DNA of 64,000 nt, from positions 177,196,001-177,260,000 of the forward strand of contig OZ024740.1 in the NCBI GenBank assembly GCA_964016885.1, read 5' to 3'. The notes under the pieces are model-generated. The model searched no databases, was not told the DNA's origin, and worked only from the letters and a program-made list of their open reading frames with translations. Of this stretch, positions 10,808 to 45,943 are shown in pieces; within the stretch, counting starts at the first letter, position 1, and the number at the start of each line of letters is the position of its first letter. The position numbers and the translations under genes were made by a program. The DNA is from Eledone cirrhosa. Lineage: Eukaryota.

Positions 10808-11555
10808 TACTTGATCGTTTTTTTTGGCTATGCGAATGATTGTTTAACCATCGTCTCAGTGTGTTTGGCGTTTAACGTTTGTTATAGCTCTGGTTTATAT
10901 GAACCATTGAGCACTTGCCTCACATCTCGGAGGTTGTTTTTCGTTATGCGAATCTCGATCATTTATGTTTGTATTTATCCCCAGACTCTAGCTATTGACC
11001 AGTTAATTTTCTTGATTTTTTAGTTGATTCTATTGACTGATGAATAACTTATGTTAATTTTAACCCTTCTGTTGAGAACTCTATTCGATTTGTGATGTTT
11101 TTGCATTCTTGCAAACATATACACAACTGAATTTATTCGCCTGATATAGGGGCTGCCTCCCTTGCCGATCCCCACGTGGAGTCAGCAATAGTCAGTCCTT
11201 GTATTAACATTGAACTAAAACCTGTTGAGAAAGTGGCTTCCTTGTTCAATCATCTTACCAGAAGCCTGACATTATTTATGTAAGCGGACGGTACTTGATT
11301 TAGGAGCCGCAGAAACCCAAATACTGGATTTTACCAACCATCCAGGGGTCCGGTTAAATTTTCAATACCCGAATTACTTGATCATGTTTTTGGCTATGCG
11401 AATGATTGTTTAACCATCGTCTCAGTGTGTTTGGCGTTTAACGTTTGTTATAGCTCTGGTTTATCTGAACCATTGAGCACTTGCCTCACATCTCGGAGGT
11501 TGTTTTTCGTAATTTCATGGGCCGAAATGCGAATCTCGATCATTTATGTTTGTTT
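10808..11555 (+). mobile_element. ORF-less ~581-nt monomer family, 1.3 tandem copies, with variant HHR
   Basis: Direct repeat 10808-10972 vs 11375-11553; homologous in opposite orientation to 17998-18747 and 45241-45943. Confidence 0.85.
11219..11355 (+). ncRNA. Variant hammerhead ribozyme (U3-A8 core TTGAGAA), long stems II and III
   Basis: TTGAGAA 11225-11231; stem II GTGGCTTCCT/AGGAGCCGC; GAAA 11312-11315; stem III CCC/GGG plus CTGGAT/ATCCAG; GTC; stem I AACCTG/CGGTT (imperfect). Confidence 0.7.
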
Positions 11556-11819
11556 ATATATATATATATATATATATATATTAAAATAACAGATTAAACT
11601 TTAATTTGTTATTTTAATAAATATTTGCTCTACGGTTCTTATATATTTGATGTATATTTATCCTTATCGAGCCCTCTTTGGATTTTAGTCTTCAAATTTA
11701 TTACTATTACTATATATATATATATATATATATATATATATATATATATATATATATATATATATATAAATTAAAATAAAATAAATAAGTCAAATGTTTA
11801 AAATTTAGCTTCGTTTATT

Positions 11820-11874
11820 ACTGCTATATATATTTCGGTGACAGCCATCTTTGGCTGTGACCTCTTCAGGCAGT
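11820..11874 (-). ncRNA. Type I hammerhead ribozyme within a ~340-bp (TA)n-bounded element
   Basis: On -: ACTGC CTGAAGA GGTCACAGCCA-AAGA-TGGCTGTCACC GAAA TATATA TA GCAGT AATAAA. Confidence 0.9.
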
Positions 11875-12249
11875 CCGAATTAGCGTGGTATAGACAAGTA
11901 CATATGTTGTTGAGGTGTATAACCTTGTCAATACTCTGATATGCCCAGTTCCTGGTTGGGTTGTTATTTCACTGAGGAACTGGAGTCATATTTATTTTAT
12001 TTTATTTTACATTACTCCAGAGTAACCAAACCAACCTGCGCACTTCGTCGAGTGCTCCAATCTGCATACTGACGTATTGGTATACAACCAACATATACTG
12101 AAAAAAAAATATATATATATATTGTGTGAACGTGTGTGTGTGGAATTGTGTTTTTCCTTTATCATTTTATACTTTTTAACTTAGAATTTATTTACACCCA
12201 CGAAAGTTAAAGCTCCTAGTTGAGATCTATCGCGGGGTAACCAAACTTC

Positions 12250-42201: not shown

Positions 42202-44984
42202 ATTTGGATTAAATGGTGTACGCTATTGTTCCAGCTCTCTGTGTTGTGGTTTCAAATCAAGCCTATAGAGACATGATAGAATTGTTGTTCATATAAAGAA
42301 AGAAGGAAAAAACATCGACGAAATCCCTTCTGAGATAAAACTTCATAGGAAGTCAATTAAAACTACAAGTGGTGAGCCGTGACAACAATAACGAGTTACA
42401 TTATTGAATATGAAATGAGGAAAAACGAAGTTTACTACGTGTGGATTTGAACCGGGATTGTAAAAAATATATATGAAAAGGCAAATGGGGCAAAAAATGT
42501 TGATCTAATCTCATTTATTTGACAGTTGAGATGATCTTAGAGCGTGTGTTAAAACTAAAACAATTTTGTCGTGAAAGAGTCGTTTTAGTCTTCAAAACCC
42601 CATAAAAACTATTAACATGGCGTTATATTTATCATATATTTTGTAGTGTCAAAAATATCGTCGTAAGAAGTTCCATGAAAATTTTATCACGAATAAATAA
42701 ATGATAAATATGAAGTAAACTTAATAAATTTGGTGCTGTTTTGAATGGTTAAACGACTCTTTCACGATGTAATTATTTTAGTCTTGTATTTCGCAGGATC
42801 CAAAACTTCCATCACTTCTAAAAGGTAAAATCTTAGGAATCAGAGAGTAACAGAGGAAGGTTATTGAAGGGAGATAGATATAGATAGAGAGAAAGGTTGG
42901 AATAAAATAAATGAGAATCAAATCTAAGTAAAATAACGATAGAACAACCAGCAAGAGACGAGCGGGTGAGTGGGGTAGAAAGTAATTGAAAGTATAAAAG
43001 GTGTGAGACTATGTTTGTGTATGTGTATGGAAGATATAGAATTAGCGAGAGAGAGAGAGAGAGAGAGAGAGAGAGAGAGAGAGAGAGAGAGAGAGAGAGA
43101 GAGAGAGAGAGAGAGAGGGGGGGGGGGTAGTTTGCTTGAAAGGGTAAAAAATGGAAACAGAAAAAGTGAGAAACGGAGAATGATAGAAAAGTAGAAAGAA
43201 TGAGTGAAATTTTTAGATTGTGCTTGTGTGCGAGAACTAGTCAGAGAAAGACAGAAAGGTCACAAAGAGTGAGTGAAAGAGAGAGAGAGAGAGAGAGAGA
43301 GAGAGAGAGAGAGAGAGAGAGAGAGAGAGAGAGAGAGAGAAACAAAGAGAGAGTGGGACAGACAGATAGACAGAAGGGGAGAGAGTAACGAGAGAGCGTC
43401 AGAGTGAGAAAGAAAGAGACATAAAGTGAGATAGAGATAGATTATGTGTGCATGTGTGAGGTACAGAGTCAGTGAAGAAAATAGGCAAAGAGAGAGGGGG
43501 TGGGTGGGTGAGAGAGAGATACAGACAGAGGGACAAACAGAAAAACAGAAAAAGAAAAAGAGAAAGCGCATGTAAATAGAATATATATGATGTAGTGAAA
43601 GAAGATAATGTGAATTGAATGACAAGTAATACATTATATTGATATTTTAACAATAACATCAAACAACAATAACACTAATAACAACAACAACTACAGCAAG
43701 CGCAACAACAATAACTACAATAACAGCAATAGCAGCTGCGAAGTCCTGTTCTAATTTTATTTTATTTTTCATTATTTTTTTATCATTTAACAACTATAAA
43801 CTTATAGGATTTTGTAATTACTCTTTCTCCCATTATACAGAATTCCGTCTAGAGTTATCCTGAAAACAAAAACTGGATGATGATGCTGGAACGACAGAAA
43901 GACGCCGAGGCATGATGGCGACAGTAAGAAAAAAAAAGTGAAGAGAATTCTGCGTCGTGAAGACGCCGTAGCGAGTAGGCGGGTATGTGTTGCGAGCAAA
44001 GATTTATTCAGTGTTTGCGTTATAAACTGCTTATTTATTATTATTTTTTTTACTTCTTCTTCTCACCCCGTCCTGGCGAGAGACCGATAGAGCGAGCAAT
44101 AGAGAGAGAGAGAGAGAGAGAGAGAGAGAGAGAGAGAGAGAGAGAGAGAGAGAGAGAGAGAGAGAGAGGGGAGATAGGGAGTAAAGAAGAGGTTGAGCAG
44201 TGATCGGGCAAGTTGTAAAGGAGACGCTCCATAAACACCTTCTCGAATGTCTCCCACCTCGTTCTTATGACCTGAAGATATAGAATTAAAATGAAAGGTT
44301 AAAGGGCAAGATGATCAATCTTTAAAGAAAGAAGGCCTACCTCCAAAGCAACAACGTCAACGACAGCAACAACAACAATAAAAACCAACAACAACAGTAA
44401 CCGTACCGCCATCAACAACAACAACAAAACAACACTAAGATCAATAACAAGACTCAATCTTCATATTTTATCTATCGTTCTTTCAGTAACATTTTCGAAG
44501 AAATGTTAAAGATAGGCGCAGACATGGCTGAGTATTCAAGATCTCTTCGCAGCCTTGTGGCTCTGGATACAATTACGCTGTGCGGCGCCACGGACAAGTG
44601 AATTCTCAAATAGCCTCAAGTTAACCAATGCATTGGGTGTGGAATTCAATACAATGGAACCCCATAACTCCATTACAATATATATATATGAATGAAAAAT
44701 AGAGCGAGAAACGGGACTGTCCATCATCAGTGATCTTCTGACTATCATCGGTATTTCTTCGCATTAAAGACCAGACACCTCAAAATCAGTGCGAGCTATA
44801 ACTAAAATAAGTTATTGGGACAGAGCGAATTGGATGGAGAAAGTGGGACAGTAAACAAACAAAAATAGTAATGCAACGTAAAGAGAGGAAATGAGAGACA
44901 AGTCAATGATACATGTGAACTTAAGTTCGACCAAATCAACGACGAGAGACGGCAGACGCATCCGAACCCTGCGAAATATATATA

Positions 44985-45180
44985 TATCCATAATTAAATT
45001 AAGGGTGTCTTGTCCGACACATATCCACCGTAGAATAAGCTCCAGGATTCCAATGAATAGATCCGAGCATTACCTACCTAGCTGTGTGTGCTTACACACT
45101 TTACAAATTATCCCCTGTGATTGTTTCATGTGTTTATTTTATATATATATATATATATGTCAATCAATTTCTAGTTGATA
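44985..45180. mobile_element. Rearranged head-to-head copy of the 62530-62885 element
   Basis: 44985-45060 is the reverse complement of ~62793-62870; 45071-45180 matches 62677-62780. Confidence 0.75.
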
Positions 45181-45240
45181 TATATATATATATATATATA
45201 TATATATATATATATATATATATATATATATATATATATA

Positions 45241-45943
45241 TAATTTCAGCGAGATCGTATTTCGGTGGTGGCCAAAAACAAAACGGAACGCAAATTTCGA
45301 GACATGCGGAAGCGCTCAATGGACTAAAAGAAGACCAGAACAATTAACATACGTTATAGAGTCCAGACAAAATGAAAACTGTGGTCGTGAATCTATCAGC
45401 CAACCGAGCCAAAAAAAAACGAAGTAAGCTAAACAGGTTAACAAAACAATTTACCTGTTTCTGACCTCCTGGAAATTGATGGTAGAATCCAGTGGGAGGT
45501 TTCTGTGACACCTAAATCAATTATACTGCCTGCTTTCGTTGTAAGCTTTTGGTATAACGATGGAACAAGGCTGCCATTTCGTCAACAGGTATTTTGTTCT
45601 CAGCCGGCCAGCAGGTTCTAATGCAGTAGTAAACTACCCCACGTGTTTACCCTGCAAGGGAGGTAACTCCGATTTTTGGCGGATGCATTCAGAATGTGTA
45701 AAAATATTGCAAGAATTGCAAAAAACAGCACAAATCGAATTAAGCTCTCGACCGGGTTATTTTTAAATAAACTTAAGCAATTAATCAGTCAATAGAATTG
45801 TCTAATAGAATTAACTAATTAATTGCTAGCCCCGGGAGATTAATACAAATATAATTTCAGCGAGATCGTATTTCGGTGGTGGCCAAACACAAAGCGGAAC
45901 GCAAATTTCGAGATATGCGGCTCAACATACGTTATAGAGGCCA
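45241..45943 (-). mobile_element. ~611-nt monomer family copy, 1.15 tandem units
   Basis: 45241 onward is repeated from 45852; homologous to the 11-kb and 18-kb copies; starts at (TA)n. Confidence 0.85.
45453..45590 (-). ncRNA. Variant hammerhead ribozyme
   Basis: ACCTG TTGACGA A; stem II TGGCAGCCT/AGGTGTCA; GAAA; stem III CCTC/GAGG plus CTGGA/TCCAG; TC; stem I register disturbed. Confidence 0.65.

Follow-up and report, generated by a model that had tools for sequence, protein, structure and literature searches.

A probable non-coding retrozyme of Eledone cirrhosa with a variant hammerhead and copy 5' ends clustered just past its predicted cut

The window analyzed here, a stretch of 64,000 nucleotides from the genome of Eledone cirrhosa, holds three diverged repeat copies that had been interpreted as members of a retrozyme family with a non-canonical hammerhead, which raises the question of what kind of element they represent, how it is copied and whether its RNA is cut in vivo. 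The copies lie where the original prediction had placed them and display its motifs and cut positions (Table 1); each contains an internal tandem repeat, with offsets of 581 (copy 1), 615 (copy 2) and 611 nt (copy 3). Between the repeat arms of copy 1 (10808-10978 and 11375-11559) the offset grows from an initial 567 to a final 581 due to a gap in the partial unit. As claimed, the 3' end of every copy abuts a microsatellite (TA or TC/TA) and ORFs are lacking: the longest stretches per copy reach at most 48-85 aa when stop-free and at most 32-68 aa when counted from Met. BLAST identity was 67% between copies 1 and 3 and 74% between copies 2 and 3. The three copies represent three of at least six related families of ~580-615 nt; the ribozyme-bearing families are only 65-75% alike, and the distant ones were located via patterns and chance neighbours only. 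The motif of the 5' half had 1,961 exact matches in the genome as compared to 0 for the reversed control, an abundance far above chance, and the canonical C3-G8 core had 1 genome match against these 1,961, so that a CUGANGA search indeed misses the family. The units are tandem, non-coding and low in GC with one type I hammerhead each, which bears out the reading as a retrozyme: the element is likely a non-coding retrozyme and, within this known class, a new variant.

Table 1. Positions of the three copies, their predicted ribozyme parts and the neighbouring PLE in the window.
Feature	Position	Strand	Remarks
Copy 1	10808..11555	+	family A, 581-nt monomer, ~1.3 units; 5' end ~25 nt beyond upstream cut position; 3' end at (TA)n 11555-11581
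Copy 1 type I hammerhead	11220..11355	+	predicted cut after C11350
Copy 1 stem I	11220-11224 with 11351-11355	+	one private mismatch
Copy 1 core U3-A9	11225-11231	+	
Copy 1 A·A mismatch	11232/11311	+	
Copy 1 long stem II	11233-11310	+	
Copy 1 GAAA	11312-11315	+	followed by stem III up to 11349
Copy 1 candidate pseudoknot	11212..11247	+	leader 11212-11215 with 5-nt stem II bulge 11243-11247
Copy 1 anti-stem-I hairpin	11351..11371	+	stem I 3' strand pairs alternatively with 11366-11371
Copy 2	17998..18747	-	family B, ~610-615-nt monomer, 1.22 units; TA on 5' side, TC/TA on 3' side
Copy 2 ribozyme	18185..18361	-	stem I 18361-18357, core 18356-18350, predicted cut after 18244, anti-strand 18190-18185
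Copy 3	45241..45943	-	family C, ~611-615-nt monomer, ~1.15 units; 5' end head-to-head with part of short TA-associated repeat (45943-46028)
Copy 3 ribozyme	45434..45599	-	leader 45599-45595, stem I 45590-45586, core 45585-45579, predicted cut after 45463
Copy 3 private 5-nt insertion at cut junction	45462-45458	-	
Copy 3 anti-strand	45438-45434	-	
5'-truncated autonomous PLE	9371..10811	-	Neptune/Nematis-type linker, C-terminal GIY-YIG, one in-frame stop

Fold and core of the ribozyme

The proposed hammerhead with covarying stems was recovered from the alignment: RNAalifold, with no structure supplied, returned a three-way junction of three helices, stem I being open, around an unpaired core, and the MFE structures of the family B, B2 and C majorities showed the hammerhead helices likewise. 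In the covariation test, 92.1% of the cells pair and double changes occur in 16 of 34 pairs, with 0 of 500 shuffles matching the covariation and slid controls at 28-38%, counts that derive from few independent events and from an alignment fitted to the model. Moreover, stem II is compensatorily rewritten in the distant families D and F. The ribozyme comprises 133-138 nt, 80 nt of which belong to stem II, and has a long stem III.

G5, A6, GAAA and GUC, a consensus lacking which was to refute the original prediction, are present in the family consensus. U4, G5, A6, A9, G12, A13, A14, the A15.1-U16.1 pair and the NUH triplet are conserved among the 116 copies that could be parsed out of 117, a set to which a pattern fixing conserved core bases contributed ~30 loci; the same conservation was seen in samples selected without regard to the core. 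Position 7 is the sole core site taking all four bases. The 3-8 pair is U-A in 87 and U·G in 27 of 116 copies, and the U3-A8 core held for families A and B but not for C, D and F, which have U3·G8. As a novelty U3-A8 did not stand, being already in print for PLE hammerheads (PMC4209133) and, in the available text of PMC3088659, for other natural ribozymes. Beside A9 and G12 the R10.1-Y11.1 pair is absent, with A·A in 79/116 and C·A in 29/116 copies; the original prediction had written the A 3' of stem II but had not flagged the position as unpaired. Both U3·G8 and the replacement of the 10.1-11.1 pair by A·A or C·A are expected to slow a hammerhead. The mismatch marks a variant and does not exclude a hammerhead, since active natural ribozymes carry U·U there (PMC7229834; available text of PMC3088659). 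Reading the core in a different register, as CUGUUGA, was rejected since these nucleotides belong to stem I. A sequence that resembles a splice donor and overlaps stem I was disregarded, as the introns it implies would be 22-55 nt long.

Among the window copies, copy 3 carries TTGACGA and thus U3·G8, the norm of family C. Copy 2 has private changes at positions 6 and 14 (TTGTTAA and GATA, as compared to TTGATAA and GAAA in the family majority) and a stem II shorter by ~10 nt, because of which its ribozyme is likely dead.

Two further candidate pairings lie around stem I. The leader may pair with the stem II bulge as a pseudoknot of 4-5 bp, whose spacing is constant across all families; the changes seen affect one side only, shuffled leaders reach at least 4 pairs in 75% of cases, and a test of the pseudoknot length yielded no significance. 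Downstream of the cut, the 3' strand of stem I can alternatively form a hairpin with loops of 10-41 nt, whose pair covaries between G-C and A-U among families (2 parsimony changes); at +2, base and partner are G-C in 67, A-U in 64, G-U in 5 and mismatched in 6 of 142 copies. The predicted probability of stem I was 0.45-1.0 when the RNA extends to +5 and had fallen to 0.03 or less by +25, which held for 5 of 5 families. On these models the hairpin is predicted to switch the ribozyme off. The fragment 11200-11370, which had been proposed for a cleavage test, holds most of the inhibitory strand 11366-11371 and could give a false negative.

Insertion ends and the predicted cut

An identical 3' end point was found in 75 of 80 loci, while the 5' junction was (TA)n in 134 of 202. 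Copies extend from partial units up to 6.7 units, including arrays of 3.8 and ~6.7 units, and inverted head-to-head arms are present among the loci. A fixed 3' end, variable 5' ends, partial tandems, inverted arms and a microsatellite target are the PLE pattern; the variable 5' ends argue against LTRs, and no tRNA gene was found in the window.

For the analysis of 5' ends, copies were chosen solely by their 3'-end motif. Ends at 0 to +30 from the predicted cut amounted to 17/75 in family A, 25/36 in family B and 27/54 in family C, as compared to 1/58, 0/11 and 0/27 at -31 to -1 (Fisher p for after versus before the cut: 3e-4, 4e-5 and 9e-7, respectively). The earliest ends in families B and C lie at 0 and +1, with the adjoining 141 and 179 nt on the 5' side empty. 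The most frequent end positions are +5 to +17, which correspond to the foot of stem I and to the interior of the downstream hairpin. Judged from the genomic copies, this pile-up is likely the footprint of in vivo cleavage, and it is the new element of this analysis. AT-rich windows (p 6e-5, family A) and aligner bias (effect at most 1.5-fold) were rejected as its cause, as was descent of the short copies from one truncated master, given that labels scatter like shuffles on trees that are poorly resolved. Hairpin loop length as a tuner of the cut fraction was unsupported (7/21 versus 10/54 in family A, p 0.22), and in the equilibrium model stem I is lost at +16 in family B too.

Copies that read through the cut mostly keep the family core and have a clean junction; dead cores were rejected as the reason for read-through since the cores of these copies are mostly intact. 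Template-jumping scars at the junction, an idea suggested by the insertion in copy 3, were rejected as well because nearly all of the 111 listed ribozyme 3' halves are clean. Copies of exactly one unit are in excess, the unit boundary holding 5/22, 2/3 and 4/14 of the ends in families A, B and C, which would fit one round on a circle and is confounded by TA-like sequence at this boundary. No copy extended beyond the second cut in family B or C, where 3 and 14 copies entered the second unit.

The PLE next to copy 1 is joined to it head-to-head through a 4-nt microhomology (10808-10811), bears at 9672 a canonical minimal hammerhead core of its own, terminates at (TA)n and is a candidate mobiliser. 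Direct junctions to this PLE family were seen only for copy 1 and for 1/202 sampled flanks, a count that leaves out flank matches in a different repeat inserted in the window PLE. Neither the long ribozyme nor the 3' end of the unit had a match across 23 PLE loci, the units had no BLAST similarity to the two PLE families examined, and a Pfam search with 5 PLE peptides returned nothing informative. RNA evidence consists of a single 270-nt contig from one run, with a depth of 3.7, which spans the cut.

Alternatives and proposed mechanism

We consider it probable, at roughly 0.8, that the element is a non-autonomous retrozyme copied by PLE enzymes from RNA which the ribozyme has cut in part of the molecules. 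It is unlikely that the hammerhead is real but weak or inactive and that the pile-up reflects reverse transcriptase that stalls on meeting the RNA fold at its 3' foot, at stem I or the downstream hairpin. The position of the commonest ends is what such stalling would give, and because many ends at +5/+6 also coincide with the foot of stem I, it fits part of the pile-up; the core moreover bears two non-canonical features, and the hammerhead of an anole PLE needed protein for cleavage, with no RNA reads ending at the site (PMC11167929). However, the ends run up to exactly 0 and +1 and then cease, in families B and C no ends fall within 130+ nt of stacked helices, where an enzyme prone to stalling would be expected to dissociate as well, and the catalytic bases are conserved across families as diverged as these while position 7 is free.

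That the units are pseudo-LTRs, forming the 3' ends of an autonomous PLE with ORF-bearing copies that escaped sampling, appears very improbable, even though the insertion signature is that of PLEs, retrozymes have been linked to pLTRs (Li et al., 2026; bioRxiv 10.64898/2026.07.22.740005) and the genome holds many PLE copies, of which two families were examined: copies longer than one unit run into the previous unit and not into an ORF, in arrays of up to 6.7 units, a PLE peptide match in sense orientation was found at the 5' end in 0 of 80 loci, and the long ribozyme is absent from both PLE families. A coding remnant or plain satellite resembling a hammerhead by chance is hardly credible. Single window copies fold weakly (z -1.1, +1.35 and -1.8) and Rfam gave 0 matches at gathering score in 5 loci, with no hammerhead among the best 150 of 223 weak matches listed for the window, all of those listed being low-scoring and nearly all on microsatellites; against this stand the absence of ORFs, by which the coding remnant named as a counter-reading in the original prediction also falls, the consensus fold with its covariation, a z of -4.7 for the whole monomer versus dinucleotide shuffles and the coincidence of the 5'-end wall with the predicted bond.

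For the PLE-copied retrozyme, we propose that a copy is transcribed and that the type I hammerhead would fold while the transcript end lies no more than ~12-16 nt beyond the cut; owing to the long stem III, it should work as a monomer. In a longer transcript, the downstream hairpin is predicted to capture the 3' strand of stem I and to turn the ribozyme off, hence only a fraction would be cut and uncut or re-ligated RNA would be stable. As suggested by the insertion pattern, the PLE endonuclease would nick (TA)n, and the start point of reverse transcription would be a fixed AT-rich position that lies 203-242 nt 3' of the cut. Where the template has been cut, the enzyme may run off at +1, with joining trimming a few bases, which would yield the short ribozyme-less copies, and on uncut or circular RNA it may read through the seamless junction, which would yield copies of 0.6-6.7 units with an intact core, presumably the sole ones able to propagate the family.

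A more specific version, in which RNA is cut in vivo despite the variant core and mismatch owing to rescue by the pseudoknot and is then locked by a viroid-like hairpin, both being recorded in the genome, is put forward tentatively and is rather doubtful. If this kinetic switch existed, the cut fraction (23% in family A, 50% in C and 69% in B) would set the share of dead-end versus propagating insertions, and the genome would be a quantitative record of in vivo ribozyme activity as well as of a stepwise core change from C-G via U·G to U-A.

Comparison with known systems

Animal non-LTR retrozymes likewise consist of non-coding, low-GC, (partial-)tandem units with one type I hammerhead each (PMC7229834; bioRxiv 10.64898/2026.07.22.740005), and PLE mobilisation has been proposed for them. 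The monomers called unusually large in the original prediction do exceed the classical 150-450 bp, but ~600 nt lies within the range of 51-972 bp (bioRxiv 10.64898/2026.07.22.740005). Described animal retrozymes have a short, often dimer-dependent stem III, in contrast to the long stems II and III found here. In most circles of animal retrozymes nothing hinders folding of the ribozyme (Cervera and de la Peña, 2020; PMC7229834), whereas the covarying hairpin observed here is predicted to block the ribozyme, a situation known from plant retrozymes and viroids, and would be a candidate self-pairing off-switch, a feature that most animal retrozymes are reported to lack. Of 9 Xenopus retrozymes, only 1 showed cleavage in vitro (Li et al., 2026; bioRxiv 10.64898/2026.07.22.740005).

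The minimal hammerheads of PLE pLTRs are similarly type I, with a stem I of 4-5 bp, a long stem II and an extra base after A9 (PMC4209133), and the U3-A8 core, the variant of Schistosoma Cercyon, had ~1,300 matches in Schistosoma (Cervera and de la Peña, 2014; PMC4209133). By contrast, the ribozyme described here has a full stem III where theirs have none, no linked ORF, a second extra base before G12, which creates the 10.1-11.1 mismatch, and U3·G8 in three families. In the available text of Perreault et al. (2011; PMC3088659), active hammerheads show U3-A8 covariation, U·U at 10.1-11.1 and stem I-II pseudoknots; the A·A and C·A mismatches and U3·G8 are not among the variants given there, and the pseudoknot here is a candidate. 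Canonical descriptors and Rfam miss natural core variants of this family, namely U3·G8 and, at the foot of stem II, A·A or C·A.

With the R2 HDV-like ribozyme, as covered by the available text of PMC3774820, the family shares that the cut defines the 5' junction of inserted copies; R2 differs in ribozyme class and element, and its cut gives a full-length 5' end, whereas here it would give short ribozyme-less copies. Truncation points are suggested as a sequence-only readout of ribozyme activity. Three features were absent from the original prediction, namely the signature of PLE insertion, the downstream hairpin and the accumulation of 5' ends at the cut. EN+ PLEs of the Neptune and Hydra clades (PMC8557442; PMC11167929) share the fixed internal start, 5' truncation, partial tandems, inverted 5' arms and (TA)n or AT-rich targets, although the units here are ORF-less and dissimilar in sequence to the two PLE families examined. 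The role of the hammerhead in Penelope-type elements was called unclear (Craig et al., 2021; PMC8557442), and in the one biochemical study cleavage was dispensable in vitro and RNA ends were lacking at the cut position (Frangieh et al., 2024; PMC11167929). While those papers leave this role open, the three families analyzed here provide a replicated and controlled genomic signal of templates ending at the predicted bond and thereby open the question to direct testing.

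Hammerhead fold and core of the repeat families

The three copies in the window, with their periods and motifs, match the original prediction, which had described them as a tandem-monomer retrozyme family carrying a U3-A8 hammerhead, and they belong to three distinct families (A, B and C). DNA searches of the host, an animal genome of 3.0 Gb rich in microsatellites, gave 2,512, 1,725 and 1,826 first-look candidates for A, B and C, respectively, which are not copy numbers; among 40 scored candidates per family, query excluded, identity was 97-98%, 82-91% and 86-93%. A weak model match and a looser pattern additionally led to families D (monomer about 590-600 nt; 1,000 candidates), F (about 600-610 nt) and G (one copy only), and E is an intermediate group. 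Searched exactly, the 5'-half pattern of the motif matched the genome 1,961 times, as compared to 0 matches for the reversed control and 1 for the same pattern with the canonical C3-G8 core.

The family majority sequences comprise a stem I of 4-5 bp, the core UUGA-N-R-A followed by one unpaired base, an interrupted long stem II of about 80 nt, and then an unpaired A, GAAA, a long stem III and GUC. Of 117 distinct copies 116 could be parsed, with about 30 loci obtained by a pattern that fixed the core; samples chosen without reference to the core gave a matching composition. Positions 3, 4, 5, 6 and 9, in hammerhead numbering, were U, U, G, A and A in 115-116 of the parsed copies, position 7 took all four bases, position 8 was A in 87 and G in 28, GAAA was unbroken in 109, and an A·A or C·A mismatch stood at the base of stem II in 108. 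When 28 copies were folded by RNAalifold with no structure supplied, a three-way junction with an unpaired core was returned. Moreover, in the alignment of 71 distinct sequences to the model, which is biased toward that model and holds few independent events, 92.1% of cells pair and 16 of 34 pairs show double changes; none of 500 shuffles matched the real value, and slid controls reached 28-38%. The stem II base shows compensatory rewriting in families D and F. A candidate pairing between the leader and the stem II bulge (4-5 bp, fixed spacing) showed one-sided changes only and did not exceed a length-only control. The complete family A monomer folds with a z of -4.7 against 100 dinucleotide shuffles; the window copies folded singly are weak, and private lesions are present in copies 2 and 3. 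The hammerhead and the retrozyme reading are supported: the families carry a real type I hammerhead variant within what is likely a non-autonomous retrozyme of Penelope-like element (PLE) pattern.

A tree of 23 representatives, rooted at its midpoint, puts families C, D and F, which have U3·G8, outside the U3-A8 families, a placement which suggests that the wobble may have been an intermediate in the core change. U3·G8 is expected to slow the hammerhead.

Insertion pattern and neighbouring elements

A common 3' end point was found in 75 of 80 loci, nearly always abutting a microsatellite, and the 5' ends were variable, with copies of 0.6 to 3.8 units. The longest array held about 6.7 units, inverted head-to-head arms occurred at two loci, and (TA)n was present at 134 of 202 sampled 5' junctions. 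The window holds two abundant PLE families (see table). The Neptune/Nematis-type PLE (28,953 first-look candidates, of which 150 were scored, at 94-97% identity) has natural ORFs of ~1,200 aa with a long Asn-rich insert (loci L186-L188), and its 3' UTR contains a minimal hammerhead of canonical type; a simple scan of the Hydra-type PLE (31,028 first-look candidates) found no clear hammerhead. A 4-nt microhomology links copy 1 head-to-head with a truncated Neptune/Nematis-type copy, and a direct junction to the 3' UTR of that PLE was seen at 1 of 202 sampled flanks. Since neither the long ribozyme nor the retrozyme 3' end was matched in the two PLE families (0 matches, 23 loci), either is a candidate partner only.

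At locus L239, a family A copy whose truncation lies at +17 (+1 being the first nucleotide 3' of the predicted cut) is joined, on the same strand, to the 3' UTR of the Neptune/Nematis-type PLE within the hammerhead stem of that PLE, possibly by a template switch. At locus L241, a family F 3' end runs directly into a family A 5' end without a change of strand. The ~130-nt AT-rich repeat also occurs on the 3' side of several loci of families A and D, and a truncated piece of it is joined head-to-head to copy 3. Outside the ribozyme, conserved blocks (window 10988-11210 and homologues) are common to five families, with three long hairpins predicted there in family A; these are candidate promoter or protein-binding sites.

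Features of the window, with strand where assigned
Feature	Position	Strand	Remarks
Retrozyme copy 1	10808-11555	+	Family A
Retrozyme copy 2	17998-18747	-	Family B
Retrozyme copy 3	45241-45943	-	Family C
Short AT-rich repeat, ~130 nt	2527-2702, 11581-11712, 45943-46028		Inside (TA)n, often adjoining retrozyme copies
Long near-perfect inverted repeats	8395-9284, 15205-17015, 17413-17691, 30181-30939		Beside (TA)n; probably more inverted insertions of PLE type
Neptune/Nematis-type PLE (by motif)	9371-10811	-	CX4CxxC linker
Fragmented Rep/PIF1 helicase reading frames	19449-24199	-	Presumably Helitron-like, by motifs
Hydra-type PLE (by motif)	24983-30245		DKT and CxCX5C; long inverted arms between (TA)n runs
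Third GIY-YIG frame	32150-32623		Flanked by inverted repeats
Zinc-knuckle ORF1, endonuclease pieces, 789-aa RT frame	47373-52517	+	Presumably LINE-like

5' ends at the predicted cleavage bond

Copies were sampled by a motif 120-150 nt 3' of the cut, which avoids selection on the ribozyme. For A, the first 100 of 895 matches gave 84 loci, 82 with a mappable 5' end, after exclusion of upstream tandem partners, repeat matches within arrays and the window's own copy; for B, all 53 matches less the window copy were taken; for C, the first 71 listed of 183 matches gave 70 loci, 68 without tandem partners. Among sampled copies reaching +30, 5' ends fell at 0 to +30 in 17/75 (A), 25/36 (B) and 27/54 (C), as compared to 1/58, 0/11 and 0/27 in the 31 nt upstream of the cut. 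In the strict +1 to +16 window, both units pooled, the counts were 17/86, 17/30 and 15/42 against backgrounds per window of 0.036, 0.060 and 0.046 (p = 1e-8, 1e-13 and 3e-10), and against AT-rich windows the pile-up in A still gave p = 6e-5. Simulated uniform truncation produced a mapping bias of at most 1.5-fold and none at the cut, and in trees short and long copies were intermixed as with shuffled labels.

This wall at the predicted bond is likely the footprint of ribozyme cleavage. The main competing explanation is stalling at the base of the folded structure, where many 5' ends indeed lie (+5/+6). A stall, however, leaves the ends at 0/+1 unexplained, as well as the empty stretch within the helices in B and C: the earliest B ends lie at 0 (two copies) with none further until -142, and the earliest C end at +1 (one copy) with none until -180. 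In the A sample a single copy stops at -3, with no further end until -52. In copies extending past the cut the junctions are clean and most cores are intact, so the templates of these copies would have been RNAs left uncut or seamlessly religated. The second cut is often passed in A (10 of 84 sampled loci), and no copy passed it in the B and C samples, where few were at risk. The fraction stopping at the cut varies between families (p = 6e-6) and is not explained by hairpin loop length.

Predicted off-switch hairpin and comparison with published systems

A second possible partner for the 3' strand of stem I lies 10-41 nt downstream. In 142 copies the +2 base and its partner were G-C in 67, A-U in 64, G-U in 5 and mismatched in 6, with two parsimony changes on the tree. 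In models that ignore tertiary contacts, the hairpin was favoured in 5/5 families when 60 nt of downstream sequence was included (predicted probability 0.54-0.98, with stem I at 0.02 or less); likewise, the predicted probability of stem I fell from 0.45-1.0 for RNA ending at +5 to 0.03 or less for RNA ending at +25. The downstream hairpin is predicted to act as an off-switch of the ribozyme. Separately, several families have a splice-donor-like sequence in the 3' strand of stem I (window 11353-11358 and homologues), and an acceptor-like AG lies 3' of the downstream partner in B, C, E and F; a splice reading was set aside, as the implied introns of 22-55 nt are probably too short.

Bench work is merited by the replicated cut footprint, the covarying predicted off-switch and the core combining U3·G8 with the mismatch. 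In the mostly open-access literature we found no published account of this repeat family, of 5' ends walled at the hammerhead of a PLE or a retrozyme, or of the present hairpin, and the supplements of bioRxiv 10.64898/2026.07.22.740005 could list similar families. The core swap and the monomer size were already published: the available text of PMC4209133 reports the U3-A8 core and an extra base after A9 in PLE hammerheads, that of PMC3088659 reports U3-A8, U·U at 10.1-11.1 and pseudoknots, and that of bioRxiv 10.64898/2026.07.22.740005 gives retrozymes of 51-972 bp, a PLE link and in vitro cleavage in 1 of 9 retrozymes. The fixed 3' end, variable 5' ends, tandems and inverted arms of the present families match the insertion arrangement described for EN+ PLEs in PMC8557442 and PMC11167929. 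By contrast, the available account of retrozyme biology in PMC7229834 has most animal circles leaving the ribozyme free, whereas in the predicted circular fold of the family A monomer the ribozyme is off.
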